A program made the position numbers and the translations under genes. Positions 773 to 60,200 of a stretch of 64,000 nt of DNA are shown piece by piece. Source of the DNA: a virus (lineage: Duplodnaviria > Caudoviricetes); the IMG/VR virus record IMGVR_UViG_3300031555_004297. One strand, given 5' to 3'. Under the pieces are notes generated by a model. The model had not been told where the DNA came from and ran no database searches. It saw only the letters and a list, made by a program, of their open reading frames with translations. How positions within the stretch are numbered: the first letter of the stretch is position 1; each line of letters opens with the position of its first letter.

Positions 773-3700
773 TTAGATAAGACTTATATACATAAGAATC
801 TCTTCGCAAATCAATTCAGGAAGAATTGTAATTTGCTTACCATTTAGCTCATCGTCTTCATAATCGATTACTTCAAATTCAGAGCTCAAGATTACAGCAA
901 TAATACTAAGAATATGCTTTTCAATCTTCTCATTCTGATATTTTCTCTTAATCTCTTCCCATAATGGAGAAGACTCGAGCTTGGTCAACTCTTTCTTATT
1001 TACATTCTTACGACTTGCAAGACGAATAACTTTCGAGCTGACAATATATGGCAACAAGATCATTCCTGATGCTTCAAGAATTCTCTTAGCTGCAATAATA
1101 AGAACCACATAATCATCAAGATTAATGGCATTGATTGTATTTGTCATTATTTCTTCATATAAGGTCGTTACTCTTATACCGCTTATTATAAAGCTGCTGT
1201 ATATCACTATACAGATGAGACTATATCTTCACCCATTACATTTGCATTGGGGTGGATGCCATTTCCACTCACTCGAGTGTACTCCCGTTCGGGATAGTCG
1301 TTGAACGTTTAAGATGGTAGTGGGAGAGGGGCTCGAACCCCCAGTTAGGACCTGGATTAGAACCAGACCTGTAAACCAGCTCTAATATCATGAGGATCTC
1401 TCATAAAGATATAAGGCTGCTAGTTGCGTTTTCCTAATTTCGCCATCCCACTATATATCTTACTTCGCTGCTGATTGTCTCATTGAGAGTTCCCAGCAAT
1501 TAGACATCTAGTTTGCCATATATTCCTATATGGGGAAACATATACTCTATCTCCAAAATATTTAAAGAACAAATTAAACACTAAGTCACGTTGGAACGAA
1601 TTGACAGTGCATTTTCCTCCAGAGCTTAGACGGTGCTTATAAAACTGAATTTCGTCTTGATCAAACGGTCCATACATCATCTTGATTTGATTCATGGCAT
1701 CGTCTGATGCAACCTGATTTTGGATAAGAAGCGATTCATCCTGCTTTTGAAGGAATGATTCAAATTTATCAAATTCACTCGTTGTGTTCACGTAGGTCGC
1801 TAATCTACGCAGTTCTCTTATGAACTTCTTTAGGTGCTATCTAAAGACCAGACTATATCATCATCTTCAGCATTATCTGATCAGATGTTTCCCATTTCGA
1901 GCTCGCTTAAGCCCTACTCCATTTCTGGATAGTCGTTGAACCTTTATTAGAATTATTTATGACGATTATACATTCTATATCTACCGGTTTTATAATCGTT
2001 TTGTGAGAAATTGTATTTTTGCGATATATGCCGCCATGCCACTCCCTTATATATCGTAGATATTAAGGCAGAAGCATCTGGTGAATCCACCCCGCATGCT
2101 AAAGCTATTTCTGCATATGACAATTTATGTTCATCTAAATGTCTACATATCATTTCAGCTTGAGCTTCAGTAATAATAGCTTTTGGAGAATCCTCTCCTT
2201 TAACATTGAGATCATTTGCAAATGCATGTACATTATTTTCAGAATATGTAGCCCATTCTAAATTCATAAAGAAAGGATTAGATTTGTCTCCATCTAAATG
2301 ATTTATTATAAGACTCTGATCTCCTGGAACAAAATACATGCCTACAATTCGATGCAAAAGAAATGTTTTAGGTTCTCCATAAACATTTAATGATACGGCA
2401 ATATAATTATCTGGGCGTGGTGTTAACTTTAAAAACCGATTTAATTTCTTATCAAAGATTCGTCCAAAATTAGATACTTCATATCTATTTGGATAGATTC
2501 CTTCAATTTTATCTTGTTCGATAGGAACAAAGACTTCGAAGAATTCTAAAGGATAATTTAGATCATTAGGGTTATCTAACATATTTATCACTCCTTTCTT
2601 TGTTTTATTAATAATTCTAATACTTGGCTGCTGATTGCCCATTATATATCAATCCTTAGAGTTTCCTCATAGATCATCTCATAACTTGTTTCCGACTTTC
2701 GTCCCCATATAGGCTTATGAGCTTTAGGGTGTCCCAGCAATTAAGGAAATTTTATTTTTCGCAATATTTCTATTACGCTGAACTAGTAAAGTTAATTCAG
2801 ATCTTCATCTCTGCGGCTAGAGCTTAGCGATACGAAACTATATTCGTATTCAATCATTATCTTCATATAAGGTCGTTACTCTTATACCGTTCTCTTACGA
2901 ACTGCTGTATGTTTCCATACAGATGAGACTATATCATGATCCGCCTATATTGATATAATTCATTATAGGCGGACCTCTCCCATTTCGAACTCACTTGAGC
3001 CCTACTCCATAAAGGATAGTCGTTGAATATTTATCAAAAGGTATAATTGCAAGATATGTTTGTATATCTTCGTTTATGCTTAATATTTGATAAGGTTCTT
3101 TTAAATTGCGCCATATCCTTAGACATATTATCCATACCTAATGCTTTAAGTATAAGATCAAAAGATATATCTATATCTGTTTCAAACATAGAGCATATTT
3201 TATTTATTTGATCATCATTAAAAACTCGATTATGTCTGCCTTGTGGGAATTTATAGTCTTTTGAAATATGAGACCATAATTTTCCTTTCTTAATGGCAGA
3301 TATAAGAGCTATAGGATTTGATGATATGAATTCTAATCCAGTTGCATATGAAATCTCAGAAGCTGATAATCTATCTTCTTCTAACAATCTACATATTTTT
3401 CTTACCATGTTTTCATCTAGTAAACTTTTGATAAGATTATTATCATATGCATGACGAATATTCTCAGATCTGGTTATCCATTCAAGATTTCTATAATAAT
3501 TGTTTCTCGGATTTCCATCTTTGTGATTAACCTCAAGTTCTGGAGAATACCCAGGACAGAAACATTTTGCAACAATTCTAGATACAAGAGCCAGAATACC
3601 AGTTCCATCTTTAAGTGTTAGATTAACATAAGCTCTATTTTTAAATTGACCCAAATAATTAAATGAATATACCTTACCATGTTTATCATAATCTATATTA

Positions 3701-5703
3701 GATATATAGCCATAATTGCTAACTATATATCTATTCTCAACTATACCGGGAACAATATTATCCGTTATCGGAACCCAAATTTCATCTATATATTGCATTA
3801 CTTTATATAGCATAATTGTTCCTCCTTATTGATACTTTACTGCTGATTAGCATGCTACTTTTAGTAGTTTAGCCTTCCAGCAATTAGAGAGATTTGCTAT
3901 ATACATTACTGTATATAGGGACATTACTCTATCCAATATTTGAAATCCCGTGTTGCGCAAAATACTTTTATAGTTGAGATGCACGAGATTTCCATCGTAA
4001 CGATACTTCGATTATACTTTATGTCGCCATAAAGACTAGACTATATCTTGATCTTATATTCTATTACCGTTTATAAGATCCTCCCCATTTCCATTTGACT
4101 AATATCAAATGTACTCTACTCAGTTACTCACTAGAATCTTTCTTTCTAGTTACCTTTTCGATAGTCGTTGAACGTTCCTCTTGCGAGGCTTCGCTGCTGA
4201 TTGTCTCATTGAGAGTTCCCAGCAATTAAAGGAGTTTATTATTCATAGTGTCACCACTATGCTGCCCTAAGCAGTTAAGGCATAATATTAATAAGCACAT
4301 TCTGCACTGATTGCAGAGTGTGGATTGTGGTATCAATACCACGAATGTCCTGCATATTCCAAATTGTCTGATTACGTTTAGCTGTTCTCAAGACATTAGA
4401 GATTGCAGTTTCATAAAGTTTGCTATAAATGTCTACATTATATTTCTCGTTATACTTAGAGATGAGCATATCATAAACGCTTAAGATAAACTCACTCGAG
4501 TTAGTAATCTTACGAGCATACATAAAGTGACACATTAGCGGAATCATACAGTTCATAACGACAGATGCTTTCATCATGATCTGTCCATGTCTCGAAATAT
4601 TCACATGAGTCGCATACTCATGCAGTCTATAAGTTGTATGATTAGTTGGTCTTATAGACGTCTCCACGGTTTGCATGGAGTCTAGACTATATCTTCACCT
4701 TCGGCTTACTGACCCGTTAAGGTGCTCCCCATTTCGGATCGAGCATTGATCCTACTCTACTAATCAGATATATCTGAACCAGGGGCGATATATCTGCTTT
4801 CGATAGTCGTTGAACCTTCGTCCTCTGCCCTTAGCCCTTTTCTTATGTAAACTACCGTGCGGGGGTTACGAATAAAAGGGATTGTTTTTGCATGTCACTG
4901 CGAAAATAAATAAATCGTTCAAAAATAGGTTTGGTACGGATGAGAGGTATGAACTCTCTAAACTTCTATAAAGATCCGCATATGAATATTTGACATGCGT
5001 ATATTAATCGTTCATGGGCTGACAGGGGTGCTTGGCTGCTGGTTATTCATTGTTAATATTGGTTAGGATTTCTCCATACAACATCTCATCACTTCTTTCT
5101 GAATTTCTTCTCTATCGGAGCCTGACACATAGGGCCTTCTCCTGTAGCAGATGAGCTTTAGGACTTCCCAGCAATTAAAGGAGTTTATCCTGCTATATTT
5201 CTATATCAGGGTGACTGTTCTCAATCACTATATTGCAAATTAGGATTCTTAATATTCTTATAGGTTAGATTAAGGGAATAATTGTCTCTATTCATAAATC
5301 CTATTTTAAGGGCAATAGAGCCATCCATAATATAACGATACAAGTCATAGAAGAATGCCTCGCGAGTATAAGCCGGCTCGTAATCGATAAGATACTTAAG
5401 ACGGCAATACATAAATACAAGTTCATGATCTTTATCATAGAACTTTTCGAAATAGTTCAAGTACTGAACTGTATGAGTTCTCATTTCGGGATTATTGTAA
5501 GATCTCTTGGTGCTCATCATAAAGCTATCCAAGCTCGCATTTTGTTCCATACCAAAAAAAGATGACACGTCGAGCATGATCGCCCCTCGGATGGTCTTAA
5601 AGACTTCATCTTCAGGACTTGGCACCCATGTATCAATAGGTTGGAACTCCAATGGTTCAAAGAACTCCATTGGTGACAATAATTCTTGTTGTTTAGAACT
5701 CAT
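773..5703 (-). CDS. sigma-like promoter-specificity subunit of non-virion RNA polymerase (AR9 gp226/phiKZ gp68-like); spliced from 6 exons: 5224-5703, 4278-4592, 3931-4008, 2795-2854, 1549-1779, 773-1144 (511 aa)
   Basis: Removing five group I introns gives one continuous frame; all junctions are phase 0 (YSD|RHG, IMP|KYR, ILD|IEY, DLN|SEF, FGD|TNT). Motifs KRSYNN, LQYSD..KASVVM..IP.MCHF, KLYE, I.PK, DEDLNSEFDKFE, NSFQ, EEILMYISLI match gp226 as recalled. ATG at 5703 with AAGGAGG RBS and an early-type promoter upstream. Confidence 0.85.
1145..1548 (-). ncRNA. group I intron 5 of sigma-like gene (404 nt, tRNA-like element in L6)
   Basis: P1 GGAGAT|…GTTTCC with U.G; core motifs; ends …ATAATG|ACA. 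Confidence 0.9.
1315..1452 (-). tRNA. tRNA-Leu-like (class II) cloverleaf with extended, non-canonical anticodon arm, nested in intron 5
   Basis: Acceptor AGTGGGA/TCCCACT + A + CCA; D-arm GCG-AAATTAGGAAAA-CGC; T-arm GGGGG-TTCGAGC-CCCTC; long variable arm; anticodon stem ACTAG/CTGGT encloses 40 nt rather than 7. Confidence 0.75.
1780..2794 (-). ncRNA. group I intron 4 of sigma-like gene (1015 nt, HNH ORF in L6)
   Basis: P1 CTGAAT|…GTTCAG with U.G; core motifs; ends …CACAACG|AGT. Confidence 0.9.
1953..2582 (-). CDS. intron-encoded HNH homing endonuclease (NUMOD4-like + HNH_3 + C-terminal HTH)
   Basis: YEVSNFGRI, LLHRIVGMYF…INHLDGDKSNP…NLEWATYSENNVHA; ATG 2582 with AAAGGAG RBS; inside intron 4. 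Confidence 0.9.
   Translation of the reverse strand: MLDNPNDLNYPLEFFEVFVPIEQDKIEGIYPNRYEVSNFGRIFDKKLNRFLKLTPRPDNYIAVSLNVYGEPKTFLLHRIVGMYFVPGDQSLIINHLDGDKSNPFFMNLEWATYSENNVHAFANDLNVKGEDSPKAIITEAQAEMICRHLDEHKLSYAEIALACGVDSPDASALISTIYKGVAWRHISQKYNFSQNDYKTGRYRMYNRHK
2855..3930 (-). ncRNA. group I intron 3 of sigma-like gene (1076 nt, HNH ORF in L6)
   Basis: P1 GGAT|…GTCC with U.G; core motifs; ends …ATAATG|ATT. Confidence 0.9.
3034..3813 (-). CDS. intron-encoded HNH homing endonuclease
   Basis: YIVSNYG, VSRIVAKCF…VNHKDGNPRNNYYRNLEWITRSENIRHA; two C-terminal repeats; inside intron 3. Confidence 0.9.
   Translation of the reverse strand: MLYKVMQYIDEIWVPITDNIVPGIVENRYIVSNYGYISNIDYDKHGKVYSFNYLGQFKNRAYVNLTLKDGTGILALVSRIVAKCFCPGYSPELEVNHKDGNPRNNYYRNLEWITRSENIRHAYDNNLIKSLLDENMVRKICRLLEEDRLSASEISYATGLEFISSNPIALISAIKKGKLWSHISKDYKFPQGRHNRVFNDDQINKICSMFETDIDISFDLILKALGMDNMSKDMAQFKRTLSNIKHKRRYTNISCNYTF
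4009..4277 (-). ncRNA. group I intron 2 of sigma-like gene (269 nt, no cargo)
   Basis: P1 TGCCT|TAA-CTGC-TTA-GGGCA; P/Q/R/S core motifs; ends …AATCG|AAG. Confidence 0.9.
4593..5223 (-). ncRNA. group I intron 1 of sigma-like gene (631 nt; structured RNA with mini tRNA-like element in L6)
   Basis: P1 GTGAT|TG-AGAA-CA-GTCAC with U.G pair at the 5' splice site; core motifs AATTGCTGGGAA, AACCAGCAG, GTTCAACGACTA, AAGATATAGTC; ends in G (…TTTCG|AGA). Confidence 0.9.
4932..4980 (-). ncRNA. mini tRNA-like element (acceptor stem + T-arm + CCA) nested in intron 1
   Basis: (T)GCGGAT-CTTTATAGAAGTTTA-GAGAG-TTCATAC-CTCTC-ATCCGT-A-CCA. Confidence 0.6.
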
Positions 5704-5736
5704 TTTGTAAACCTCCTTGATATATTTTTCCACAAT

Positions 5737-5745
5737 TATAATATA
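5737..5745 (-). promoter_or_regulatory. early-type promoter TATATTATA upstream of sigma-like gene
   Basis: Same motif at 12194-12202, 15779-15787, 19299-19307. Confidence 0.65.
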
Positions 5746-6710: not shown

Positions 6711-7784
6711 TTATTCGATAATTTTAAACCATCCAAAACATGTTTTTCCCGCGCGTATTCCTTCTTTTGCTTCAGGGCTATCAATATTTAGAATCTGGTA
6801 CAATTCTCCACAGTAATCGTTACTATACTTTTCTGGTGCATTTGTACATTCTTCATCTGTAAGCCATTCAATAGCAATACATTCTAATGCTCTCTCTTCA
6901 GGATCCTTATTCTGATCAAGAACAAGATACACATCCCTATCTCTTACAGATTGCCCTATTTGAAAACTGTCTTGAATAATAATAGGAATAAAAGGATCTA
7001 GCTTAGAATGATCTATAAACGTATGATCTTTAGTATCATCCATAATCTTAAACCATCCAGCATGAATGGGTATTCCAGCACGTGCCTTTCTTTCCAAAAA
7101 GTCAAGTGATAATCTGGTATATTTATTATCATGATCAAATTCGCCGAAATAATCGTTATTATATCTTGAATGAGACATATCATATTCAGCATTGCTTATC
7201 CATTTATCTCCTAAGCAGGCAATCTTGATAGGATTTTTATATTTCTCAGGATGAATAAGATAGTACTCTTCTTTATTCTCCCTAAGATTCTTCAAGATCA
7301 TCCAATCAAGATCACGGCCTTTGTTTAAGGTATATACCATCACAGGTACGTATCCATAGAGATCAAGCTCTGTTTCAAAATCATCGATTTCATATCCATA
7401 AAATTCTGGAGTGCCAGATCGACGAAGGTCTGTAAAGAATGGATATCTGATTCCTCTCTTATATGCTGCTATGATATTATCTTCGTTAATATGACCGTAT
7501 TTAGAATGTTTAAAATACGGTGCCAAAGTTATAGAAGATCCGGCAATGCATTTCTTACTTATATTCCAATGATTGCCATCTCTAGAGCATTTGTATCCAG
7601 CTCTATACATTGCTAAAGCAAAATCTTCATTAGATATATGAATACCCACATCGGCTTCAAATGCGTGCCTAAGATATCCTGTATGAGGAGTATCTTTGTT
7701 TACATTTTTAACATGAATACAATTGTATGCAATCCAACAATCGATGCATGCAAGTATTTCTGGTGTCGTAATTCTAGTTTCCAT
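6711..7784 (-). CDS. hypothetical protein with a tandemly duplicated C-terminal domain
   Basis: Two copies ending NDY.GE…GWFKI; AAAGGAG RBS. Confidence 0.7.
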   Translation of the reverse strand: METRITTPEILACIDCWIAYNCIHVKNVNKDTPHTGYLRHAFEADVGIHISNEDFALAMYRAGYKCSRDGNHWNISKKCIAGSSITLAPYFKHSKYGHINEDNIIAAYKRGIRYPFFTDLRRSGTPEFYGYEIDDFETELDLYGYVPVMVYTLNKGRDLDWMILKNLRENKEEYYLIHPEKYKNPIKIACLGDKWISNAEYDMSHSRYNNDYFGEFDHDNKYTRLSLDFLERKARAGIPIHAGWFKIMDDTKDHTFIDHSKLDPFIPIIIQDSFQIGQSVRDRDVYLVLDQNKDPEERALECIAIEWLTDEECTNAPEKYSNDYCGELYQILNIDSPEAKEGIRAGKTCFGWFKIIE

Positions 7785-7805: not shown

Positions 7806-8855
7806 TTAAGTTGTTACTTTACTCTTATTAGATCTTGCAGCTTCTTTTGCTCCTCGATTCATATTTACATGAACAGGCTCTACCCATCTTGCAATAAGTT
7901 CGCGATTATCAGAATCTTTAGGTCCGTACCAGTAATGATGCCAATGTCCGGCTCTCATATGAGGAATCCTAGACGCTTTAGGCCTCATACGGATATATGT
8001 TTTATTTACATCCAGCTCGCGTTTTTCTCTAGCATTATCCTCTTCATTTTTAGATCTACTAATAGTCCTACCGATAGCTGCCTTAAGAGGCTCATCATCT
8101 ACAACATCTTCGGGTCTATCTATCCACTGGATATCAAGTTTTGGAATATAAGTTCCTTTATATTTAGGATCGTTATTCTCTTCAAGAATATATAAGAATA
8201 AACTTAATACCTTTAAGCAATAAGACTTATATCCTTCTTTAACCTCTCCAGAAATATGATAGATATTATCTTTAATAAGCTCTCCATCATTGAGTACAAG
8301 TTTGTACTCTCTTAAAACTGTCATAGAACGCCAGTGAAGCTCTCTATTATATTCTTTAATAAGATTAGGAATTGTAAATGAGCATATATTCAGAGCCAAT
8401 CCATCAACAGATGTTTCATCACGATAAATGATGATACAATTATTCATATGATTTTGCTTACTTGGTACATACATGCACATCCCATTGAATGGGAGTTTGG
8501 TAAAGAAATCAGAATCGATCTCTTTATTACCTACATAAGATAACATGATTTCATTTACAGAATCCTCATCAAATATATAGAGTTTTCGGTGCTCTTTCCA
8601 GTGATAGAATGCACAAAGACGGCTTGCCATCATAGATACGGTGAGTTTATCATTTAGCGACATTCCATTTTTCTTATAATATTTAACAAGTTCAGACCAA
8701 ACTGTATCGCTAGATGTCTTTGCATCTTTAAAAAAGTTTAGTCGCTCCTTTTCACCTGTTTTATCGAGCTGCTCATAGAAACCACTATATATTCTTTTAG
8801 TCCTATCTAAAGCAACATCCATTAAATCTGTAGGATCATAATATTCTTCAGACAT
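7806..8855 (-). CDS. AcrVA2-like family protein (putative anti-CRISPR/anti-defence)
   Basis: C-terminal PHMRAGHWHHYWYG…RWVEPVHV motif and LPF..MCMYV, as recalled for AcrVA2-family proteins. Confidence 0.5.
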   Translation of the reverse strand: MSEEYYDPTDLMDVALDRTKRIYSGFYEQLDKTGEKERLNFFKDAKTSSDTVWSELVKYYKKNGMSLNDKLTVSMMASRLCAFYHWKEHRKLYIFDEDSVNEIMLSYVGNKEIDSDFFTKLPFNGMCMYVPSKQNHMNNCIIIYRDETSVDGLALNICSFTIPNLIKEYNRELHWRSMTVLREYKLVLNDGELIKDNIYHISGEVKEGYKSYCLKVLSLFLYILEENNDPKYKGTYIPKLDIQWIDRPEDVVDDEPLKAAIGRTISRSKNEEDNAREKRELDVNKTYIRMRPKASRIPHMRAGHWHHYWYGPKDSDNRELIARWVEPVHVNMNRGAKEAARSNKSKVTT

Positions 8856-9166: not shown

Positions 9167-9524
9167 ATTCTAGAACTATTTCAAGAAATGGAACGACTCT
9201 TACAGCAACATCTCGGCCTTCATTATCAACACCATTTAAGAATAATCCATTATGGCGATCTAATGTATGCCCTTCTACTTGCTCGATGTTATTTACAGAT
9301 TTTGCATGGTTTTCAAAAGGAATTATTTGATTGACACCCTCAACCCAACGATCGAGAATGGCATCGCAACCCGCATACTTATAGATTTGAGTAAGAAGAT
9401 TATCAATTGCAATACAAGGAAATCTCAATTCCTGAGGCCAAGAATCATTATTCGTATTGAATTCAATATAATTAATATGCTCAGATTTGATAAAAAGCCT
9501 TATAAAATTCCTAAGTTTAATCAT
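9153..9524 (-). CDS. hypothetical protein, paralog of 10682-11053
   Basis: TNNDSWPQELR vs TDNETFPKELR; translationally coupled to rtcB. Confidence 0.65.
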   Translation of the reverse strand: MIKLRNFIRLFIKSEHINYIEFNTNNDSWPQELRFPCIAIDNLLTQIYKYAGCDAILDRWVEGVNQIIPFENHAKSVNNIEQVEGHTLDRHNGLFLNGVDNEGRDVAVRVVPFLEIVLEYVQE

Positions 9525-10689
9525 TATTTTCTCCTTCTGCTTTGAAATTGTAAATAGGTTTAATTATCTTCTCAATTTCTACAGTATCTTTAATACGATC
9601 GGTAATATAATCCAATGACTTATAAGCCATCGGAGATTCATCGATTGTGCTATGAGAAATAGAACTTGAGTAAATGCCTTCCATCTCTTTCTTATACCGA
9701 GTAAGAGTAAGACTATTTCTAGCTTGCTCTCTTGTAAGAAGACGTCCAGCCCCATGAGGAGCAGAATTGTTCCAGTCAGAATTTGATTTGCCCTTGCCGA
9801 TAATGCAACCTTCCTTCATATTAATTGGAATGATTACCTGGTCGTGTTCGCATGCACGAATACAACCTTTTCGTAGATGGTAGTAAACAATTGGATTACC
9901 ATCTTCGCCTACTCCATCGCTAGCAATTCGAATTGAATTATGAGTACAACCTATTTGATCATATGAGATCTTCCATTTCATTGCTTTGCAGATCTCGTTT
10001 ATAATAGCTCCACGATTCTCACTAGCAAAATTAGAGACTCTACCTACATCCTGGTAGAAGTCCATCGCCTGATTACCTGTAAGATATGCAAACTCGTAAG
10101 GAATTTCAGGATGCTGAGCTTTGGCTTCTTCTTTATAATAGTCGATAATTTCTGTACCAAGATGTCGGCTGCCACTATGAACGATAAGCCAGTATTCGGA
10201 TTTTCCATTCATATCTTCAGAAATTCCGAGCTCGATGAAATGATTTCCGCCACCAAGAGTTCCAATACTGCAAAGAGCTTTATCTATATTAAAGTTTCGA
10301 CAAGTCAAGACATCGAGAACAAATTCTCTAATCCATACTTCTCGTTCTTTGATATTTTTATCACGAATATTCATTCCATAAGGAATTTCAGATCTGATAA
10401 ATTTATCAAGCTTTTCAAGTGCAATCTTGGGTTTACCGGCAAGCTTAACAGCAGATACACCGCATCCTATATCTCCACCAAGAAGAATAGGAGAAATTTT
10501 ATTTCGACTCATCAGACTGGTGCCAATTACGCAACCAGGACCAGCATGAACGTCGGGCATAATTCTTATAATAGCATCCTTTCCAATATCGCTATCGAGA
10601 AGGGCTTTAATCATTCCGAGAGAGCTCGGATCAATTTGATCTGTAAATACTTTACAGTTTTCAGACAAGATAGTTTCATATTTAATCAT
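9517..10689 (-). CDS. rtcB: RtcB family RNA ligase (3'-phosphate/2',3'-cyclic phosphate to 5'-OH)
   Basis: MPDVHAG, GGDIGCG, GTLGGGNHFIE, HSGSR, HN, SAPHGAGR, DESPMAYK. Confidence 0.95.
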   Translation of the reverse strand: MIKYETILSENCKVFTDQIDPSSLGMIKALLDSDIGKDAIIRIMPDVHAGPGCVIGTSLMSRNKISPILLGGDIGCGVSAVKLAGKPKIALEKLDKFIRSEIPYGMNIRDKNIKEREVWIREFVLDVLTCRNFNIDKALCSIGTLGGGNHFIELGISEDMNGKSEYWLIVHSGSRHLGTEIIDYYKEEAKAQHPEIPYEFAYLTGNQAMDFYQDVGRVSNFASENRGAIINEICKAMKWKISYDQIGCTHNSIRIASDGVGEDGNPIVYYHLRKGCIRACEHDQVIIPINMKEGCIIGKGKSNSDWNNSAPHGAGRLLTREQARNSLTLTRYKKEMEGIYSSSISHSTIDESPMAYKSLDYITDRIKDTVEIEKIIKPIYNFKAEGENND

Positions 10690-12246: not shown

Positions 12247-13014
12247 TTATTTATTGTGCTTAGTATCAATATCGGCTTTTATAAGTTTAGCAATTTCCAT
12301 GGCATCTGCATAATATTCATTATACTTGACATATTCTTTAGATGGATCTACCTCGCTTGCATCTACCATTTCGATAGATACGACATTGATTGGATGCATA
12401 GACATGATCTCATGACTAGTATGGAATCTGCTTTCAACCTCATCAGGCGAATCCGCTTCAACATAGGCAACAATTTCCTCATCTTTAATTAGGAATGTAT
12501 AGGTTAACTTAAAAATCGGATGAGATGAGTAGAAAATTTTATGAATGTCATTGGGTGGCTGAATATCTACAGAGCTTTTAACTCGGCATTCATCATTAAG
12601 CAAATCTCTTACTTCCATAAGAATATAACCAAGTCGATTTTGTCCGCAGTTATTGACTTCATCATACCCCCAATAAGCATCACCCCAGTTATTTGCTTCT
12701 ACAAGAATAGAATCGCCTGTTCCAATAAGTTTTTTAGCAAGCTCTGGGTTTTGCTTAAACTTGAAGATTATAATATCCTTCATGATATTATCCTTGACAA
12801 ATTCCCAATCTGATCGCAGATTTACTTTTCTGCCAAGTCTCTTTGCTTGAGATGGATTAAGATTGCAGAATTCTCGTGCTCTTGAAGGATCTTTCTGAGC
12901 ATGGAATGCTGCTTCAGAATTCTGATAAGTTATACCCTGATATGTTACATGGCAAGAATAATAATTGCTAAGGAAATAATATTTTCCTTTAAAACCAAAA
13001 ATCATATTTTCCAT
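12247..13014 (-). CDS. NADAR (YbiA-like) family protein with C-terminal extension
   Basis: FLSNYY…YQNSEAAFHAQK…AKRLGR…DW…KFKQNPEL..KLIGTG…LVEA..WGDAYWG…GQNRLG.ILM.VR. Confidence 0.9.
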   Translation of the reverse strand: MENMIFGFKGKYYFLSNYYSCHVTYQGITYQNSEAAFHAQKDPSRAREFCNLNPSQAKRLGRKVNLRSDWEFVKDNIMKDIIIFKFKQNPELAKKLIGTGDSILVEANNWGDAYWGYDEVNNCGQNRLGYILMEVRDLLNDECRVKSSVDIQPPNDIHKIFYSSHPIFKLTYTFLIKDEEIVAYVEADSPDEVESRFHTSHEIMSMHPINVVSIEMVDASEVDPSKEYVKYNEYYADAMEIAKLIKADIDTKHNK

Positions 13015-19361: not shown

Positions 19362-22184
19362 TTAGAATACAGGAGCTGTAATTTTGTCTTTATCTGCATC
19401 GAGACACATAGTAAGACTATACAAACTCTGCATTGCTTCTTTATCAGAAGTTCTGACGCCTTTTCCTCCGAGGTTAAAGTAATGAGCTTTAGCACTAAGC
19501 TGTTCATCAAGCTCAGCATTAGCCTCTTCAGAGAAAACTCCACGTACTGTAACTTGGTCACCGTCGTAATCCAAATAAACTACATTATCTTTCAATAATG
19601 ATTAGACTATATCTTATACTAGTAAAACTAGTATTCTCCCGTTTCGGGTTCATAGGAAATTTACAAACCCTACGTCTTTCGACTAGTCGTTGAACATCTG
19701 TATTTATCATCTTCTTTTCTTATTACGCATTGTATCATATTCATCCTTCTTTTCAGGGCGAATAGGAATAGCACGTTTAATATTAGAACGCTTATTTCCT
19801 GGTTTTATACCATATTGAGAAGATATATGTGTCCATGAATGCCCTCCAATAATAGATCTTATAATTAGAAGATCTTTTGGATTAGCCTCCATCCATGCAT
19901 ATATTGCACACTCCTCAATAGAGTATCCTAATTCAGTATATGCTTGGCATATTAAATGAACCTGAAATTCTGATATTCTAGATTTAGGATTCAATTCACC
20001 ATTTTGGTTATAGTTTATTAAATCACGCCTAGATAATATCAATTGTTGATCAAATAATGATTCATCATATTCTTCATTGAAATAAATTCCATGTAACGCA
20101 TTTTCAGAATCATTAACCCACTCGAGATTCCAAGCATAATTGCAACGACCATCTGTATTAAATTTATGATTAACTAAATTTCTGTTCATTGCAATATCAT
20201 CTACTGTTTTAGGTATAAATGCATTTGCTACAAGTCTATGAATAAAGAATTTTCGTCTTTTAATATAACTTGAGCATGAAAGTTCTATGCGTAAATAAGT
20301 TTTATTTTGTTTAGGAGGTATATATTCTTCTGGAAATAATTCTCTTCCATAAGATGTAAATATCCTTCCATAAGATGTAATAAAATATTTTAATTCTATG
20401 ATATCCTCGAAATAGATGTATTTAAATTCTTCTACAGGATATCCTGGGATTTGTAAAGATAGTTTGGCTGCCGCCTCGGCTTCTGTTAAAAATGGCGGTT
20501 GAAATAAACAAACTCCAGCTTTTTCTACCATATAAAATCACCACCTTTCATTAAAATAATATATAATGATAAATACATTTTGCTGCTGATTGTCCAATCT
20601 TCATAATTTTTAAACATTCACGCTTGACATTGCTATCTACGTTGTAGTTTATGAAGCTCTTAGGAGTTTCCAGCAATTAGAGAGATTTTTATTTAAATCG
20701 GAGGCAATTGTTGACGGTTGTTTACCACCGATTCCTTCAAGATACAAATTACTAATATTTAAGGTATCAATAAATCTATTAGATGTATTAGCTCCGATAT
20801 CAGATTGTCTGATCTTCGGATAATTCTTATAGAACTTAGAACCCATTACCATAGGCTCAGTTTCAGTCGTAGAAGAAATTCTAATCTTTGTAGGATATTC
20901 GTTGAAGTAGCTGTCAATTGGGTACCTGGTAATCAAGACATGCTTATCTTTAGTACTTTCAACAGCAGCCTGATATAGAATATCACACCAAGTTAAATCT
21001 CTTTCCATTATAGGAAGTTTTCCTATATCAGATTTAGCGAATTCTTCTTCGCTCATGTTATAGCCTTTGAAACGCAATCTTACAGTAATACCTTCTATTG
21101 TCGGAACTTCAATAGGAATAAATCTATTAGAGAATCCAGTACAGAATCTTTCGATTTCTTTCTTAATTCTTTCATCAGAGAATTCCATCTGATAATCCTT
21201 CGGGTGAAGATAAGTTACTTGTCCATTCTTAATATAAGGAAGGACTGCATCTCCAGCAAATTCATTCTCAAAGAATCTTCTTACATTATGAATCATAAAA
21301 GGTAAGAAGTTTACACATGCAGATGCAAGAGGAAGAACAGAATAATCCAAGTCTGCTTCGATATCATCGAGTCTTTCAACCTTCAATTCGGGAGCAGAAA
21401 GGACTAGACGAGATCCATAGTCGGTAGTCTTACTCATAACAGCTCTACGAAGAATACCAGTCTTACCGGGAATAACATTCGTAGTCTTATCGCCATTAAT
21501 TGTAGTACCAGAACCAAACCAATCATAGATCTGTACAAGCGTCTCTTGCACACGTCCTCTAGTAGCATCATTAAGATTCAATCCATAGTCTGCGGATTCT
21601 TTAAGGGCTTTAACAAAGACAAGAAGATTTCTATAGAGTTCATTAATCTCTCCAACGGCCACACGGCCTTTCTCGGTATTAACGTCTCTATAGTATGCGG
21701 GGCACACAATATATTTCTTAATAAACATTTCAGGTGTTCCCATATACTTCTCGATAAATTTTACTCTCATGTCTCTCTGACGAGAGTCTGTACGTTTTAG
21801 TTTAATTTTATCAATATTCTTTTGTAAGAACTTGACTCCACATTCACCATTTTCATCATCGATAACAAGTTCTCCTTTATCATTAATGATGAATCTATTA
21901 ATGCCATGAACGCACAACTTAATATTAGAATCGATCTTAGTCCACATCTTATAAATAAGAGGGTTAATAAAAGTATCTCCAAGATCTATATAGGCGAATG
22001 TATTAGCTCTATCATATTTAGTGATTCCGAAAATTTCATTAGATAATAATCCATCAGGAGTAGGAACCGAATTTCTAATAAAGAAAACAGGATTCGTGAC
22101 TTCTTTAAGATCATTGACTTTTACAAGTTTCTCAGGGTCGATTAGATTAACTCTGAGGTGCTCGCCTTTAAGCAAATCAGCCAT
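19362..22184 (-). CDS. phage multisubunit RNA polymerase beta-prime (N-terminal/catalytic) subunit, probably virion RNAP; exons 20724-22184 and 19362-19571 (about 556 aa)
   Basis: DGLLSNEIFG, GKTGILRRAVMSKTTDYGSRLVL, TRYP; splicing restores LEGIGG|DYDGDQ catalytic motif; late-type promoter variant upstream. Confidence 0.9.
19572..20723 (-). ncRNA. group I intron 6 in RNAP beta-prime gene (1152 nt, HNH ORF in L6)
   Basis: P1 AATCGGTGGT|…GCCTCCGATT with U.G; AATTGCTGGAAA, AATCAGCAG, GTTCAACGACTA, AAGATATAGTC; ends …TTTG|GAT. Confidence 0.9.
19707..20531 (-). CDS. intron-encoded HNH homing endonuclease
   Basis: YFITSYGRI, FIHRLVANAFIP…VNHK…NYAWNLEWVNDSENALH. Confidence 0.9.
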   Translation of the reverse strand: MVEKAGVCLFQPPFLTEAEAAAKLSLQIPGYPVEEFKYIYFEDIIELKYFITSYGRIFTSYGRELFPEEYIPPKQNKTYLRIELSCSSYIKRRKFFIHRLVANAFIPKTVDDIAMNRNLVNHKFNTDGRCNYAWNLEWVNDSENALHGIYFNEEYDESLFDQQLILSRRDLINYNQNGELNPKSRISEFQVHLICQAYTELGYSIEECAIYAWMEANPKDLLIIRSIIGGHSWTHISSQYGIKPGNKRSNIKRAIPIRPEKKDEYDTMRNKKRR

Positions 22185-51288: not shown

Positions 51289-54200
51289 TTATTCAGATGC
51301 CAAACCAGACATTACTTTCAGAAGATAATCGGTGTCTTTGTCGCCAATAAGTTTGGCAGCATTGGCATCACCACTTCTTTGAATAATTCTAGCTAAAGCA
51401 GCCTTAGTGCCAGCAGTATTCTGTTCTACTACCTTTTGAACCTCTTCCTTATTAAGGTTAATATCGAGTTTCTCAGACAGGAGTTCAAGAATCTTTGCAA
51501 GCAATCCTGTATTAGCCGCAATCTGCATCAGGACATTAACGATGGTCTCGAGGAATACTTCATAGCTTACGCCACCAGCTCCTCCAGATTTATCATCCTT
51601 AGCATGTACAACAACAGGAGTCTCGGCAGGTTCATAAGAATCAAGAGCTCTAGCAGATCCATAGTGCGCAGCAGCTGCTCTTCTGCTTTCAGTAAGAGCA
51701 TTAGCACCACGTCCAGATCCAACTTGACCATCAATCTTCTCACTAGTTACCATAGCACTCAGCGTAGTACCCAATACCCTTCTAGGATCATAAGATACAC
51801 GAGACTGAGGCATATCAGGATCTTCAACAACAATATTATTCTTATTATCTAAGCCAACTCCAGTAATGAAGTGAGGTCTAGAACCATAAGGAGAATTGCT
51901 ATTGCCTTGAGGATCCATTCCAAGCATTACTACCTGATGACCATGTTTGAGAGCTTCCATAATAAGGTTACTATCATTCGTAGCCTGGGTCTTAATGCCA
52001 TATTTATTAAAGATGGACTCGAAATACTTCATGTCTGTCATGCCTTCTTTATTCAAGAAACCATTATTTTCAGCATGTCTTGCAGCTTCATTAAGAGTTA
52101 TAGTCTTTCCACGTACATTGTTGATAGCATTAGTTGCTGCTACAGGAGCACAACCATTTTCACCAATTGTCGTAGGACCATACGTTCTATTTGCTACAGT
52201 AGGATCAGATTGATAGATATGTTTTCCAGCACCACCAAACCAACCCTTTACGGTACTCCAAGCATTGGAGATTCCTTCTCCAATACTACTAGCAACATTC
52301 TTGATACCATCTACGACAGCACCAAATTTATCGCTAATCCATCCACCGACATCTGGGAATCCCCAGTTACCTCCTCCGAAGAAGCTCTTGATTTTACCAA
52401 AAGTATTTTCAAAGAAGCCAGTGATACCATCCCAAATGCCCATAATCTTTTCTTTGATCCAGTCAAATGCATCTGTTACAGGTTTCAATCTCTGTTTTAA
52501 TCCATCGATACCACCAGTAATAAAGCTTACAACTGTACCAATTGCACCGACAATAATACGAAGAGGAGTACTCAATACTTTGACCACTTGGAAGATCACG
52601 TTATTGATAATATCCATTACGTTATTGCCAGTAGATTCAGGAGACTTAGGCGATTCCTCACCCTTCCATGCAGCTGTAAATAATGCTCCAACTGCAGTTC
52701 CGAGCTTAGGAAGCATCTGTTTGCCAGCATTAATAACTACCTTAACAGTATCTACAACACGGCCAACTACCCAAGTTAATGCTCTAGGAACGAATGTAAC
52801 AACTTTGACAACAAAGAAGATAGCCTTGTTGATAATATCCATTACATTATTTCCAGTGCTTTCAGGTGCATCGGGTCCATCCTCACCCTTCCATGCAGCG
52901 ACAAAGAGTCCGCCAACAGCAGTAGCAAGTTTAGGAATCATTTGCTTGCCGGCATCAATGACGATCTTGACAGTATCGACAATTCTACCAACAGCCCAAG
53001 TGATTGCACGAGGAACAAAGGTTACTACCTTAACAATTCCAAATACACCCTTCATTACGTTATCAATCATATCATTACCAGTGGTAGAAATGTTGATCTC
53101 GTAATCTTCTCCCTCCCAGGATTTCTTGAACAACTGTCCAACCATTGTTCCTAGGATAGGAATGATAACCTTACCACATTCAATAGCATCCATGACAAAG
53201 TTCTTGACCTTACCAACCATCGAAGTGATATAGATAATCGGAGAGATTGCAATTTTCATTACAGAGAATACGACATTTGCAAGGTTACCTACAAGACCGC
53301 GTTCATTTTCCTGGTTGGCCTTCACGGAGAATGCTCCAAGCATATTACCATCCCAAGCTTTGATAAATACGTTCTTAACACCTTGCCAGATGAAGCTACC
53401 GAATTTCTTCAAGCTATCCCACATCTTAGCCATATTTTCTTTGAAATGTGCGAAGAATTTTACAATACTTGTAATCGGACAGGTTATAACTTTCATCACT
53501 CCATGGATTACGTTCTTGATACCCTTCAGAGGATCATCGTCAGCAATCTGGGACTCCTCGGAATCTTCTCCAGTTACGGCAGAAGTCCAAAGATTCTTAA
53601 ATGCTGCAATTATCCATTTAGGAAGTCCCTTAAAGGACTCTATAAGCGGAGCCATAGTCTCATCGAGGTTACCATTCTTGATACCACTAAAGATATTCTT
53701 AATGGTAGAACCAGCATCCTTAAACATTTGGATAGCGCCACCGCCTACTTGTTTGACGTTTTCGACTTGCTCTCCAATCTGAGTATTCTTGAGAGCTTTT
53801 CCAATCTGAACATGCAGTTTGTCCTTATTGTTAAAGTCTTCAAGGTTATCATACTGCTCTTCAGGATGTGCTTCGTTCCACTCATCCATGATGTCTTGAG
53901 CTCTAGCTCTAGCTTCCTTAAGACCCTTAGGATCAAGTCCAAGAAGCGGGAATAAGAACTCAACGCAGACATCTACGATAATTTCAGAAGGAAGCAATCC
54001 AAAAGTAAATTGATTTGTAATAAGTTCCAACAAACCGCAGACGATTTTATGTCCGAAGTTAACTTCGAACTCAGTATCGCCTTTAGCAACGCCAAGTATA
54101 GTATCGGCATTATCAAAACCATGCAAGAAATCTTTTACCCAAATAGCAATAGCAACAAAAGGAATCTTACCGGCAATACCGCTAGCAATCTTTCCTAAAG

Positions 54201-57200
54201 CTTTGCCAGCAACTTTACCAACAATATTCTTACTAAGCTTCTGAGCAATCTTTTCGAGAGCCTCTTTAAGCATAGTTGTAGAAACGCCCTTACCGCAGAA
54301 TGACAAAATCTTAGCACCGATCTTGGAGTCTCCGATCTTTGCAAACGCCTTGCTAAGCCCAGCAGCTATCTTACTACCAACATTGTCAGCACTATTCTTA
54401 GCTACATTCTTAGCAGCTTTACCAAGGCCTTTAAGTCCTCCCTCAGCGATATCATCTGCCGCGTTGCCCATAATATTCTTAGTAGCACCAGCAGCTGTCT
54501 TCTGCATAGATTTAAATGCTGCAGAATTAGCAAGATTATCACTATTCTTGATACCAATTTCAAGGATATCATCAGTAAGGTTTCCACCAGACTTTTCTGC
54601 GATCTCGATAGCGACATCTTCGATAGCCTTAGCATCTCCACCCTTCTTCATGATAGCCTTATAAATATCATCAGCATTTCCTCCAGAAGCTTTTGCAAGC
54701 TCCTTAGCAGCATCTTGACGAATTGCTGTACTTTCAATAACATCATGAACGATATCTCCAGCCTTTTGACCGAGATTAATAGAAGCACCAGCTCCTTTTA
54801 CTGTATAGCCAACGCCCTTAGTTGCTGCTTTAACAACACCTTTACCAACGCCCTTAGTAGATACTTTAGACATTACTTTACCAACGCCAGACTTACCAAT
54901 TCCAACAGCAGATCTTACAAATGCTTTACCACCTGCAGATACCATTTTAGAGCCGATAGAATCATTGGTATTCATAACAGTATAACCGCTAACAACTTCC
55001 ATTACAGGATAATCTGTAGGATCGGTAGTTGTTTCGGTTTGGGTTTCGTCAGTATAATAAAGAGGATTGCCCTTCTCATCAGTAGCCTGAGCCATTTCAA
55101 CAGTATTGGTTCTCTGTTTTCTACCAAGAGCACCAACAATACCAGCTGCAGCTTCATCATATTCGTTCGTAGCGGTTCTATCACCAACGCTCTTCTGACC
55201 CCATTTGATGTTCTTTATAGCACTTACAAGTGCCTTAACAAGACCTGCAATAAATACGGGAGCATTATTAAGAAGAACTTCAATAATAGGCTGAATAACG
55301 TTGTCACAGACTTTCTGGAAGTTATCTGCAATATACTGAACTCCATCGCGAACAATACCGCCAAAGCCATCGGGGAATTTTTCTTTGAACCAGCCAGAAG
55401 CTTTAGTCCAGATCTTTCCTACAAGGCCATCAGTAGAATCTCCCTCGTTACCAAAGAGAAGTTTCTTGATAGGATTAATAACCTTATCAGTCAGAACGTC
55501 GCCAAACATTCCAAAGAGGGTAATACCTCCGAGAATACCAGCTCCAATTCCGATAGCTTTTCCAACTTTAGTGCCGCCAATGAACGAGAACAATCCGCCC
55601 ATAGCATCACCAATCTTGCCAAGAATGCCGCCCTTCTTCTTTCCCTTATCCTTAGGATTTCCAAAGAGCTTATCCTTAATACTGATAAGTGCATTTTTGG
55701 TCTCTTCGTGATTTGCAGAATCTCTATCATCTTGAGCATCTTCTTCCTCCGCCTTCTGTTTAGCTTCAACTGCTTCTACCGAGTCTTCTCCATGCACTGT
55801 TTCTACAGCATTAACTGCAGGATCTACAGGTACAGGAAGATTAGAACCAGGAGCAGGAAGTAATCCAGCAGGACTTTCAGAAGATCCGCCCTTTTTCTTC
55901 CGACTAGGAAGTTTAATTTTAGATAATACACCAGCAACTGCAGTCTTTGCACCAGTAAGGATTGAAGTCTTTTCAGATTTCTTGCCATCTTCAGCTTCTT
56001 CTGCAATAAGTTTAGCATATTCTTTGACCTTCTTATGAGGAACATCTTCGAGAGTATATCCGTCCTTCTTTGCAAGAGCTTCAACTCTCTTTATAAATTC
56101 CTCTTCAGTCATTGATTCAGGACGGTTCTTAAGAATCTTTTCGCTGAATGCATCTTCTCTGCTTTCTTTAATAGAGTCAATCATAGATGCAATCGAGCTC
56201 TTAGCAGCAGTCTTGAAGGACATCTTAGAGACTTCCTCATTCTTGTGCTCCTCTTGAATTTGCATCATATACTCAAATCTCTTATCAGCAGGAAGATCTT
56301 CGAGAGTATATCCATCCTTCTTTGCAAGGACTTCAAGTCTCTTATTAACCTCTTCTTCCGTAAGTCCAGGAATATCTTTTGCAAGAATTCCTTTGACCTT
56401 ATTAGAAGCGGACGAAACAGCTCCAGATACAGCTTGACCAAGTTTTGATCCAGCAATACCAGCAGTTGCTTTCGACATAGCATCCTTAACAGAGGTAGTT
56501 ATATTAGAAGTGCGGTCTGCAAGAGTGGTCTTGAAGAAGATAGCTTTACCCTTCTTAAATCTCTTCTTTTCATCCTTACTGAGATTTTTCAGGATTTCTT
56601 GTTCGATTTTCAGATAACGTTTCTCTTTAGGCCCTCTCTTTTGGAACCAGTTCATGCTCTTGATCTTTGGTTTCTTGCTCATCCATCCAAAGGATCTGAC
56701 ACAGGTCATGACCTTGTCTTTGAAGAATTCTTCAGCAGACATGCCATCCTCTTCTGCACCATCATCCTTGAATTTTGCAGCAAATGCTACCATTCCGGTC
56801 TTGGCTTTCTCAAGACTTGCGGATGCTTTCTTCTTAGCATCTCCAAGCATATTAGATACCTTTTCTCTTACAGTATCAAGAGGATTAGGTTTCTTTAGAT
56901 AGATAGCTCTACCCTTCTTGAATACAGACTTTTCGGTCATATTCATATAATTAAGGCAGAATGCTTCAATCTGTTCACGCTTTTCTTCGGAGAGATCAGA
57001 GACTTGCTCAGCTTTCCATCCAAAAGCTCTAGCTTTATCCATTACAGCCTCTGTATAGAACTGTTCAGGATCAGCATTTTTAGCAGCATCAGACTTAGCC
57101 TTTCCAGCTGCGAATTCAGATTTAAGGAAAGCTATATCATCTTTAACGCCAGATGTGACTCCGGCTAGTTTCTGGCCTATCTTGGATTCGGCAAATTTGG

Positions 57201-60200
57201 AAGATGCCTGATTCATCAAAGCCTTAATATCAATCTGAGGAGCATCAGGTCCAGTTGCAAGTGCAGGAATCATCTCCTTATTTGTAGTTTCTACAATTTC
57301 AGGAGATCCAGCACCGAGAAGCCCAGCAATCTTAGATTTTGCAGGTCCAATAGCAGATCTTGCCTTGTTAACAGCAGTCAGAGCTTTCTGCTTAAGTTTG
57401 TCCTTAATGGACATCTTAGCATATTTCTCAGGATCTACATTATCAACTCCAGCCTCTTCTGCTTTTTCCTCATCTTCTTGCTTTTTCTTATCCTCTGCAG
57501 CATCAGCAGTCTTCTTCTTAACTTCTGTAGGAACAATGTCTGTTGACGGCTTCTTGCCCTCTTCAGCACTATTTCCGCCAGGAGTAGTTTTGGCCTCTTC
57601 AGCAGCAGCCTTAGGATTAAGAATAGCTTTCAGAAGTTCATTGGATTCTGCAATTTTTTCAATAATAGTCTTCGTTCTTTCTTCGTAGATATTCTTGAAA
57701 AGATTTGTAGCTTCGGCAGGATCTGTAGGAGGTTCAGGTTCATGACCCGATTCACCATCCTTCTTAGCTCTCTTAAGACGAGCTTTTTGCTCATCTGCCA
57801 TTGCCCTTTGAATCTGACGAAGATCGCTATTGCCTTTAATGCGACGGCCGAGTTTCTTCTCAAGCTCCGCATCTCCAGCAGCAAGTTCATCTTTAGCTTT
57901 TCTAAAGTCAGCATTCTCTTTATAAGTCTTCTCGAGCAATCCCTTAATTTGATTCTTAAGTCTAGACTTCTCTTCAGGAGTAAGATTTTTAAGATCATCA
58001 ATTGCTTCAAAAGCTCCCTCTTCATCGCCTTCAGCGGCAATTTGAGCGATCTTCTTGACCTTATTGTAGCCAACTCTATCATAGAGCTGATGTCCACCTT
58101 CATCATATTCGTTAAAGAAAGAGGAAATCTCTTGACCCATCTGCTGTCTTACACCACCAAGGTTCTTACCAGCAGCTTCACGAGCCTTAAGACGTCCCTT
58201 GACAAGTTCTTCGATACCCTTAAGCTGGGATTCATCCATTTGGCTAATGGCTTCATCCTGCTCAGTAAACTTGTCCTTGCCCATCTTCTTGTCTTTTCTA
58301 AACTGAAGTCTCTCTGCAGCTGTCATTTCTCCAGCTCTACCAGTTCTTACACGCTTCTTTTGCATATGGTCAGCAGCCGCTCCCATAGCTTTAAAAGGCG
58401 CTCCGATAATAGCCTTACCAATGGCAAGAGGAGCTTTCAGAATGTTAAAGAATGTTTTAGTAATGGGCTTGAAGATCTTCTCTTGCAAGAAGTCATGAAT
58501 CGGAATACCAATAGTCTTCTCAAACATGTTGTTTAAGAAGTCCTTAACTTTATCAAAGGTATTAGTTACGGCATTCTTAATAGCGATACCTAATTCCTTA
58601 CCGAAGTTCTTAAGGGGATCGAGGATCTTCTTTTTACCCCATTCGGTGAGGTCATCAAAGATCTTCTTAATTCTCTCTTTAGCAGGATTGAGGATACCAT
58701 TCTTGATAGCACCAACAAGGCTGCCCTTCTTAGGATTATCAGGATCACCAAATACGAATTTATGGAATGCGGAAGTAGAAGTAAGTAATCCAGCACCAGC
58801 ACCAAGAACAGCATTTCCAAGTAAACCGAATGGACCCATAAGCATTCCAGCAACAGCACCGATTCCCATAGCAGGAACAGACTTCTTGAAGAATTTCTTA
58901 GCCTTCTCAGCAGTTTCCTTAGAAATAAGACCATCTTTACCGGTTTCAGCATCACCAAATACGAACTTCTTGAAGTTATCATTATTCTTCAGGTATCCAA
59001 TACCAGCGCCAATCGCAGCACCACCAAGAACACCAAAAGGAGTAAGCAATCCAAGAAGACCGCCTGCGATACCAAAGTCGCCCATGTCTTTACCATGCTT
59101 CTTGAAGATATCGACAACAGACTTGGGAATGACACCGCCCTTACGATTTCCTTCATCATCCTTCTCACCGAATAGCATGGTCTTAAGAGTTTCGCTATTC
59201 TGAAGAACAGATATACCAGCACCTGCAAGAGCACCAAGCAGCGGATTACCCATAAGCAGACCTGCACCTGCACCAAGGATACCACCAGCTCCAACTCTAG
59301 ATGCCTTAGAAGGATCTTTATTCTCTTCCCAGATCTTATAAAGGTTACTCTTCATTTCTTCAGTATTGAAGGTTCCCTTTGCATTAAGACCTATATAATT
59401 CATGATTTTTGCTCTATCAGCTCTTTCAAGGCTCTCCATTCTGGAGAGTTCTTTAGGATCTGTAGAGGCAGGGATAATAATCTCTCCAGGAGAGATCATA
59501 GTAAGACCGCGTTTGGTAACGATTCTACCACGTGCGCTAGTTGCAGGCTGCTCACCAGCAGGAGTACCTTCTGTTTCATTCTTGATTTCTTCGGCAGACT
59601 TTACTCCACCTTTTTCAAGTTCAGAAATGATCTGATCACGTCTAGCTTTTCTAGCCTTGATCTTAGTATTTACTCTACTGATATCTGTGCGATATTGCTT
59701 TCCAAGAGCAACGATAGCTTTTCTAGCCTCAGGGCTTCCTTCAGCTTGCTGATATAAGAATTTGGTGGTAGCAGTAATGCCCTGCTCCTTTGCCATTTCG
59801 TATACCTGTGCTTCATCGAAACCAATTTCTGCAGCTTTCTTAGCAAATTCATGTTCTTTAACGCTTATAGTACGTTCATTAAAAGCAGTACCAACAGCAT
59901 CCATTCCGCGTCCAATAGTTCTATTGAAGCCAAGTTTAACTCTGTTCTTACCAGATCTAAACATGTCTCCCATAGCATTCTTGACAGGAGCGCCATACTT
60001 ATCCCATAAAGGTTTTAATTTTTCTTTGACTTTATCTTTGAATGGATCAAATTTATCTTTAAACCACTTAGACAGACCTTCGAAAGCATCTTTAACTCTA
60101 GAAATCATATAATTAAATATGCTATCGATTTCATTACCATCCTTATCGACCATCTTCTCATTTCCAAAGAAGACTTTGAAAAGATTTTGGTCTGCCTTGT

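Follow-up and report, generated by a model that had tools for sequence, protein, structure and literature searches.

The introns most similar to those reported here are the td intron of phage T4, which reportedly carries the I-TevI gene in loop L6, and the introns in the RNA polymerase genes of AR9 and phiKZ-like phages. They have the same ribozyme core and the same cargo position as the introns of the DNA stretch that we analysed (the window, which covers the initial 64 kb of a virus record 185 kb long), and the AR9 and phiKZ-like introns also resemble ours in their use of RNA polymerase genes as hosts (the AR9 intron gene is described in PMC5312081). The cargo of these known introns is an endonuclease gene. 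HNH genes are likewise found in window introns 3, 4 and 6, whereas other introns of the window and its relatives hold a tRNA gene or a tRNA-derived RNA.

A tRNA gene within the loop of a group I intron has been described from organelles. In hexacoral mitochondria, P8 of ND5-717 holds one tRNA gene among many genes (PMC6545197), and putative intron-encoded tRNAs are reported from fungal mitochondria (PMC7902536). The coral intron, however, encloses a large genome segment in P8, whereas in the phage introns L6 carries just one tRNA cassette, in alternation with endonucleases, and the organellar accounts (PMC6545197, PMC7902536) describe no conserved anticodon-less derivatives of the kind found in the phages. 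In the trnL introns of cyanobacteria and plastids, the intron lies in the tRNA, which is the reverse of the nesting seen in the window; two relatives (L250 and L259) combine both nestings, with inner introns that likewise follow U34 of tRNA-Leu. Plant mitochondrial t-elements, model minihelices, P4 CI and P1 C4 possess an acceptor, a T-arm and RCCA without a decoding arm, as do the elements described below (PMC11143913, PMC5499578); unlike these RNAs, the window elements lie inside a predicted self-splicing intron and can be traced to intact tRNA-Leu orthologues. The literature searched, with most subscription papers outside it, yielded no report of a tRNA in a phage or bacterial group I intron, and tRNA-type intron cargo is not mentioned in the searched parts of PMC3984707, PMC11878797 and PMC13282480.

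Host gene and group I introns

The interrupted gene and its introns are arranged as follows.

5731..5745, minus strand: early promoter motif of AR9 type (TATATTAT, 6 nt, G), 5' of the host gene
773..5703, minus strand: host gene, AR9 gp226 / phiKZ gp68-like promoter-specificity subunit of the non-virion RNA polymerase
5703-5224, 4592-4278, 4008-3931, 2854-2795, 1779-1549 and 1144-773, minus strand: host gene exons
4593..5223, minus strand: group I intron 1, 631 nt, after residue 160, with a visible U-G pair in P1
4009..4277, minus strand: group I intron 2, 269 nt, with a bare L6 hairpin (RF00028, 97 bits)
2855..3930, minus strand: group I intron 3, 1076 nt, with an HNH ORF (3813-3034) in L6
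1780..2794, minus strand: group I intron 4, 1015 nt, with a NUMOD4-HNH ORF (2582-1953) in L6
1145..1548, minus strand: group I intron 5, 404 nt, after residue 388 (RF00028, 80 bits)
19572..20723, minus strand, outer ends provisional: group I intron 6 in an RNA polymerase subunit gene, with an HNH ORF (20531-19707) in L6

The six exons were located by comparison with intronless homologues, with joins placed at 5' exons ending in U and introns ending in G. When joined across the five introns they encode 511 amino acids in one frame, and this product matches the family HMM along its whole length (E 7e-213). The intronless homologue L030 matches PDB 7s01_A (E 3e-13), which we take to be gp226, and the PHROG RNA polymerase family phrog_25005 (E 3e-20). 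By homology through L030, we assign the host gene to the AR9 gp226 / phiKZ gp68-type subunit, which is required at late promoters (PMC7598289), in agreement with the initial annotation, in which the interrupted gene was taken for a late-transcription factor. The early promoter motif, whose consensus comes from AR9 (PMC5312081), is enriched 5' of genes (18 of 155, against 1.9 when shuffled). Searches for host-gene homologues in annotated phage records returned matches to intron cores only, and the single RNA run, X1 (share 0.05; contigs only), contained no spliced junction and no RNA ends. Elsewhere in the window, a 3692-aa ORF (51289-62367) probably encodes a virion protein.

Matches to RF00028 on the minus strand were obtained at 4017-4287 (97 bits), 1197-1573 (80 bits), 2905-3102 (57 bits) and 4662-5235 (51 bits), placing introns 1, 2, 3 and 5 above the cut-off, with weaker, partial matches at 1828-2074 and 19583-20675. 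The P, Q, R and S motifs occur in order in all six window introns and in three more elsewhere on the 185-kb contig. The Q-to-R interval, which corresponds to P6/L6 in the six window introns, measures 221, 21, 812, 687, 162 and 888 nt in introns 1 to 6 (in intron 6, Q lies at 20591 and R at 19694). The initial annotation had placed all six inserts at this one position, and the order of the motifs confirms the placement, but the P-to-Q interval varies as well, from 25 nt in introns 2 and 5 to 106 nt in intron 4 and 132 nt in intron 1. The HNH ORFs noted earlier in L6 of introns 3, 4 and 6 indeed match nucleases of PHROG 59 (E 4e-36, 2e-34 and 7e-23), and the bare hairpin of intron 2 agrees with its interval of 21 nt. 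Introns 1 to 5 each have a U-G pair in P1 at the 5' splice site and a terminal G, and their removal restores the host frame; for intron 3, the automatic 5' site at 3943 was replaced by 3931, which gives P1 pairing and a better HMM score. We classify the window introns as ordinary group I members that are predicted to self-splice.

The P-to-Q stretch of intron 5 is identical to that of intron 2, and the 3' hairpin of intron 5 recurs in intron 3, from which recombination between introns at the conserved motifs may be deduced. Near-identical mosaic blocks, which pair window 4227-4190 with 1501-1464 and window 2742-2636 with G000 139759-139653, also suggest recombination between introns. The 208-kb contig of L020 (G002) has 14 group I R motifs, five of them in the host gene and five within 2.2 kb elsewhere, and in intron 1 of L253 and L256 matching R/S changes in P7 amount to a compensatory swap in the catalytic core. 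Chromosomal group I introns of Bacillaceae (L192, L195, L199, L208, L217 and L238) share the Q and R motifs and have a bare hairpin in L6, and some of them apparently lie at the 3' end of flagellin-like genes.

tRNA-shaped elements and the intact tRNA-Leu genes of relatives

L6 of introns 1 and 5 contains tRNA-shaped sequences that end in CCA.

4932..4979, minus strand: mini-tRNA in L6 of intron 1, with a 6-bp acceptor, 15-nt linker, 5-bp T-stem, A73 and CCA
1315..1452, minus strand: tRNA-Leu-derived RNA in L6 of intron 5, 138 nt, with homologues in L088 and L004
1386..1418, minus strand: 33-nt segment of the intron-5 element, removed in silico only

CCA-ended tRNA-like folds had been proposed in these two introns, and a rule that combines a perfect T-stem, a T-loop, an acceptor partner and CCA finds exactly these two elements on both strands of the 185 kb. 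Of the ends first given, 1452/1315 and 4932 stand, whereas 4980 is the U that precedes the 6-bp acceptor, which starts at 4979. The 48-nt mini element has lost A58 and stacks 11 bp of acceptor and T-stem; its sequence is the same in nine other assemblies of the window species, and its fold z-score is -1.9 (taken alone, and weak without homologues). The intron-5 element (fold z -2.8; found by ARAGORN with introns allowed) has a 7-bp acceptor, a Leu-type D-arm, a T-arm at 1342-1326, A73 and CCA, with 12 stacked acceptor and T-stem pairs; a long hairpin cap replaces the loop on its 5-bp anticodon stem, and its enlarged variable region includes a T-loop-like hairpin (1366-1352). Compared with a canonical tRNA-Leu, both elements have the acceptor, T-arm, A73 and CCA (the mini element with its shorter acceptor and without A58), but neither has a 7-nt anticodon loop on a 5-bp stem, the anticodon arm being absent in intron 1 and the loop being a hairpin in intron 5. 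Default ARAGORN and Rfam searches called no tRNA in the window, a default-threshold search of the 185-kb contig found no free-standing tRNA, and a relaxed ARAGORN threshold gave 83 calls, mostly by chance.

Several other assignments were rejected. A tmRNA is not called by ARAGORN, and pair 3-70 is G-C or U-A rather than G3-U70. An amber suppressor with TAG recoding does not accord with a coding density of 0.879 versus 0.884 and seven ordinary TAG ends, and an amber-suppressor reading of the variable-arm loop was likewise discarded. Pairing of the intron-5 insert with the 3' hairpin of its own intron was dropped because the 3' hairpin of L004 differs. The variable-region hairpin and linker at 1366-1319 look like a degraded repeat of the T-arm and the 3' strand of the acceptor, as if a tRNA 3' end had been duplicated, and the conserved insert stem of intron 5 (1418-1380) looks like a permuted version of the 3' hairpin of introns 3 and 5 (1180-1155).

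Relatives were gathered both through the host protein and through sequence patterns. In 13 distinct introns, L6 holds a canonical tRNA-Leu (UAG or UAA) with a cloverleaf, 7-nt loop, long variable arm, A73 and CCA, called by default ARAGORN and by RF00005 at 57-60 bits. Two further L6 tRNA-Leu genes have the anticodon divided by a second group I intron. In L250 (8088-8482), a tRNA-Leu(UAA) is cut after U34 by a 238-nt inner intron (8162-8399; RF00028 E 3e-9), and ARAGORN calls the joined tRNA; a clear U-G pair in P1 was sought at the 5' site of this inner intron and none was found. In L259 (6658-7763), a tRNA-Leu(UAG) is split by an 804-nt inner group I-like intron (6788-7591) with its own HNH gene, so that the nesting has four levels: the mRNA, its group I intron, the tRNA, and the inner intron that holds the nuclease gene.

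Such cargo occupies six or seven insertion sites, which in the host gene include, besides residue 160, those at about residues 157, 280, 291, 332 and 388, and outside it the DFD site of a polymerase subunit (L004). All 15 distinct introns at residue 160, which were found via the host protein and not the RNA, have a tRNA body in L6, with no bare hairpin or direct HNH gene among them; ten are canonical tRNA-Leu, one is split (L259), and four have altered anticodon arms (the window, L254, L255 and L257). L255 and L257 (6674-6880; RF00005 44 bits) have a GAAA tetraloop in place of the anticodon loop and a G15-C48 pair, which in L255 replaces A15-U48, while in L254 (6668-6911) the anticodon loop is expanded by a T-loop-like hairpin and the variable region is short. 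L088, with 93% identity to the window in exon 1, has an intact tRNA-Leu(UAG) exactly at the position of the window minihelix. From this comparison, the mini element reads as a reduced form of the tRNA-Leu(UAG) that L088 keeps intact, and both window elements descend from complete tRNA-Leu genes, which most relatives keep in L6. The initial annotation had considered the introns to be carriers of tRNA mimics. A tRNA-type cargo in L6 is what we find, but because the elements descend from complete tRNA-Leu genes, which the relatives retain intact, the term mimic would fit the derived state only.

When viral contigs were scanned without regard to isotype, for CCA lying 2-146 nt ahead of the R motif, every intronic element was of Leu type; the scans of metagenomes and genomes had been designed with a bias towards Leu. 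Of the 15 matches from the first pattern scan, 3 were intronic and represent one element; the match in L080 was dismissed as chance. With the Leu-type pattern, no tRNA-in-L6 intron was found in GTDB genomes, and scans for free-standing copies of the intron-5 element returned the L004 family only. G001 and G002 have one other tRNA each. A free-standing tRNA-Leu(UAA) lies just 3' of the host gene in L249 (8271-8359), L253 (8417-8503) and L256 (10550-10636), where the introns carry Leu(UAG), and is a possible source of cargo.

L6 as an exchangeable cargo slot

At several insertion sites the cargo of L6 differs from one phage to another. At residue 291, L259 has a tRNA-Leu(UAA) where long HNH ORFs occur in the window and L020; at residue 265, hairpins stand against an HNH gene in L255; and at residue 311, a hairpin in L259 stands against HNH genes. 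The polymerase DFD site has an ORF on the contig of the window and an intron-5-type RNA in L004, and the two cores group together at 100/98 in an intron tree that is otherwise poorly resolved (10 of 46 branches supported). The intron-5-type RNA is thus present on two different intron cores. In G001, both introns found hold tRNA cargo and neither an endonuclease. Interchangeability, as proposed in the initial annotation, is upheld because the cargo differs between introns at the same site, and these comparisons show L6 of these phage group I introns, as read from their sequences, to be an exchangeable slot in which a tRNA-Leu gene is one cargo.

Conservation of the top half and proposed fate of the RNA

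Pairing of the acceptor and T-arm in homologous introns had been named at the outset as a check on these elements, and it is conserved: 21 distinct elements have 251 acceptor and T-stem pairs in total, of which 250 are standard; with shuffled partners the mean is 173 and the maximum 191. The elements are related, so that these counts are neither independent events nor a probability. A73-CCA is present in 21/21 elements and U at -1 in 19/21, and the six non-canonical elements keep 70 of their 71 pairs. Alteration or loss of the anticodon arm with retention of the top half has at least three origins, namely the window minihelix, the L254/L255/L257 clade, and the intron-5 type. For the window copies we infer selection on the top half alone (acceptor, T-arm and A-CCA), which is the unit recognised by RNase P. 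Acceptor plus T-arm hairpins with RCCA are efficient substrates of this enzyme, and the window elements have the determinants listed in the same source: a stacked acceptor/T-stem of about 12 bp, a T-loop, RCCA, and U at -1 (PMC11143913).

The reading that we favour, and consider probable, is that of an intron-hosted tRNA-Leu cassette that would be released by RNase P, with non-decoding derivatives in the window genome. No late-promoter motif occurs within 75 nt 5' of 19 intronic elements, which suggests that the tRNA arises as a portion of the host transcript; in L162, a sequence close to the early promoter motif lies just 5' of the tRNA, which counts against this. In nearly all cases, the motifs indicate, the tRNA would have no promoter of its own and would be transcribed early, together with the sigma-like subunit. 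Host RNase P would cut the 5' end of the L6 tRNA, and the 3' CCA would be freed, probably by a cut in the U-rich trailer and subsequent trimming. RNase Z is an unlikely enzyme for the 3' end because an encoded CCA inhibits RNase Z in Bacillus subtilis. Since L6 accepts any content, at lengths between 21 nt and more than 1100 nt, control of splicing is less likely than a tolerated break or release after splicing; the RNA would most likely come free from the intron once excised, or from a folded intron able to withstand a break in this outer loop. The canonical copies would give normal tRNA-Leu(UAG or UAA), thereby making an intron without an endonuclease worth keeping. In the window copies, the likeliest job would be that of being cut, which would free a small tRNA-shaped RNA and open the excised intron for turnover; turnover as the effect of the cut is our best guess. 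Counting against this reading, only two independent lineages have the intron-5 type, and its conserved extension stem, to judge by comparison of its copies, exceeds the needs of an RNase P site.

A less likely explanation is that both window elements are decaying tRNA pseudogenes whose stems persist only as a compact fold that protects folding of the intron. The mini element, which has lost A58, has undergone a large deletion and changes faster than its surroundings: relative to intron 1 of L088, it lacks the D, anticodon and variable arms, and its 3' top-half strand is identical at 21 of 27 positions, compared with 95-97% in the flanks. L088 also has a T-stem mismatch and L004 a bulge. The mini element, with its 11 stacked pairs, is compatible with decay too, and decay under structural constraint suits it best. 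All of its stems are nevertheless paired, with a double change of a T-stem G-C to A-U relative to L088 (one such change being, by a rough estimate, about a 4% chance event). Also against decay, A73-CCA and full acceptor pairing are retained in six of six altered elements; the window intron-5 element and that of L004 differ at four acceptor pairs and all five anticodon-stem pairs, every one of which still pairs; and the five longer altered elements retain G18-G19 and the 15-48 pair. To a similarly low degree we credit a stronger version of the carrier idea, in which the introns have been domesticated as tRNA carriers and the anticodon-less forms are either modules, triggered by RNase P, that couple the tRNA-processing capacity of the host to splicing of the late factor, or released mimics. 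If this were true, one transcript in some relatives would pass through two nested self-splicing steps as well as tRNA processing.

The intron-5 element might instead be a cryptic tRNA-Leu, from which an insert of 33-35 nt between C32 and U33 is excised and the halves ligated by RtcB, giving an anticodon NAG for CUU. An RtcB gene is indeed present, 4.3 kb from the introns, close to the distance of about 4 kb stated in the initial annotation.

9517..10689, minus strand: RtcB RNA ligase (Pfam E 3e-48)

This reading is tempting because in silico removal of the segment leaves a 7-nt loop that reads UAG in the window, GAG in L088 and AAG in L004, a leucine anticodon every time, and because CUU is the main leucine codon of the phage (47%), whose contig has no free tRNA. 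Short, unexplained introns inserted in the anticodon loop, as here, are known from tRNAs of Lak phages (PMC6784885); for the intron-5 element, however, no insert-free allele was found, and the remaining body is also non-canonical. By inspection of the pairings there is no bulge-helix-bulge, and the 3' cut would fall within a helix. The product would be atypical, with a C32-G38 pair, A37 and a variable region of 27-32 nt, and ARAGORN misfolds it (window and L088) or misses it (L004); moreover, in two of the three copies a change of the varying base is matched by its partner in the helix. RtcB lies near the host gene only in the window species and L019, and it was not found in G001 (90% complete), which has both element types, so the ligase is probably outside the intron system and a cryptic tRNA seems rather improbable. 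Next to rtcB, the window encodes an AcrVA2-like protein (7806-8855; Pfam) and, at 12247-13014, a protein that is NADAR-like by eye; near the host gene, Tad8 matches occur in L253 and L256 and a Spo0A-like gene in L257.

We give slightly less credence still to a switch in which splicing of the late-transcription factor would be gated by RNase P cleavage within L6 before the intron has been removed. It would accord with the role of the host gene at late promoters, with the concentration of tRNA cargo in that gene, and with the processing of phage regulatory RNAs such as P4 CI and P1 C4 by RNase P (PMC5499578). However, the range of lengths and contents tolerated in L6 implies that this loop is not needed for catalysis, many relatives are without these introns altogether, and one element resides in another gene (L004). 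Equally doubtful is a role of the released RNAs as decoys, or as nuclease-proof substitutes, against host defences that cleave tRNAs. Phage tRNAs are proposed to counter tRNA cleavage (PMC13282480), and the anticodon loop is repeatedly lost or capped while the body is kept. An RNA without an anticodon loop would, however, be a poor decoy for an anticodon nuclease and useless as a substitute in translation, and no link to any defence system was found. Bacterial LeuRS uses the long variable arm of tRNA-Leu, which is lacking in the mini element, L254 and L255. Recruitment of the host leucyl-tRNA synthetase as a splicing cofactor by the tRNA-Leu body is accordingly very improbable, for although Leu isotypes alone emerged from the isotype-blind scans, and yeast mitochondrial LeuRS assists group I splicing and can be replaced by bacterial LeuRS, the region bound in yeast is not tRNA-like (PMC7600831).

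On the strength of these comparisons, we regard the arrangement as a real feature with firm confidence, while the function of the two window copies is proposed from their structure. Standard annotation breaks the host gene into fragments and overlooks the derived tRNA forms. The textbook order of an intron in a tRNA is here reversed, and two relatives combine both orders (mRNA, intron, tRNA, intron, in one case with an HNH gene inside). The series from intact tRNA to minihelix at one orthologous position is a natural one, and may indicate which features selection keeps after decoding has been lost. A slot of phage introns that is normally used by selfish endonucleases would gain a non-coding cargo useful to the host, which offers a testable answer to why introns persist after their mobility has been lost.
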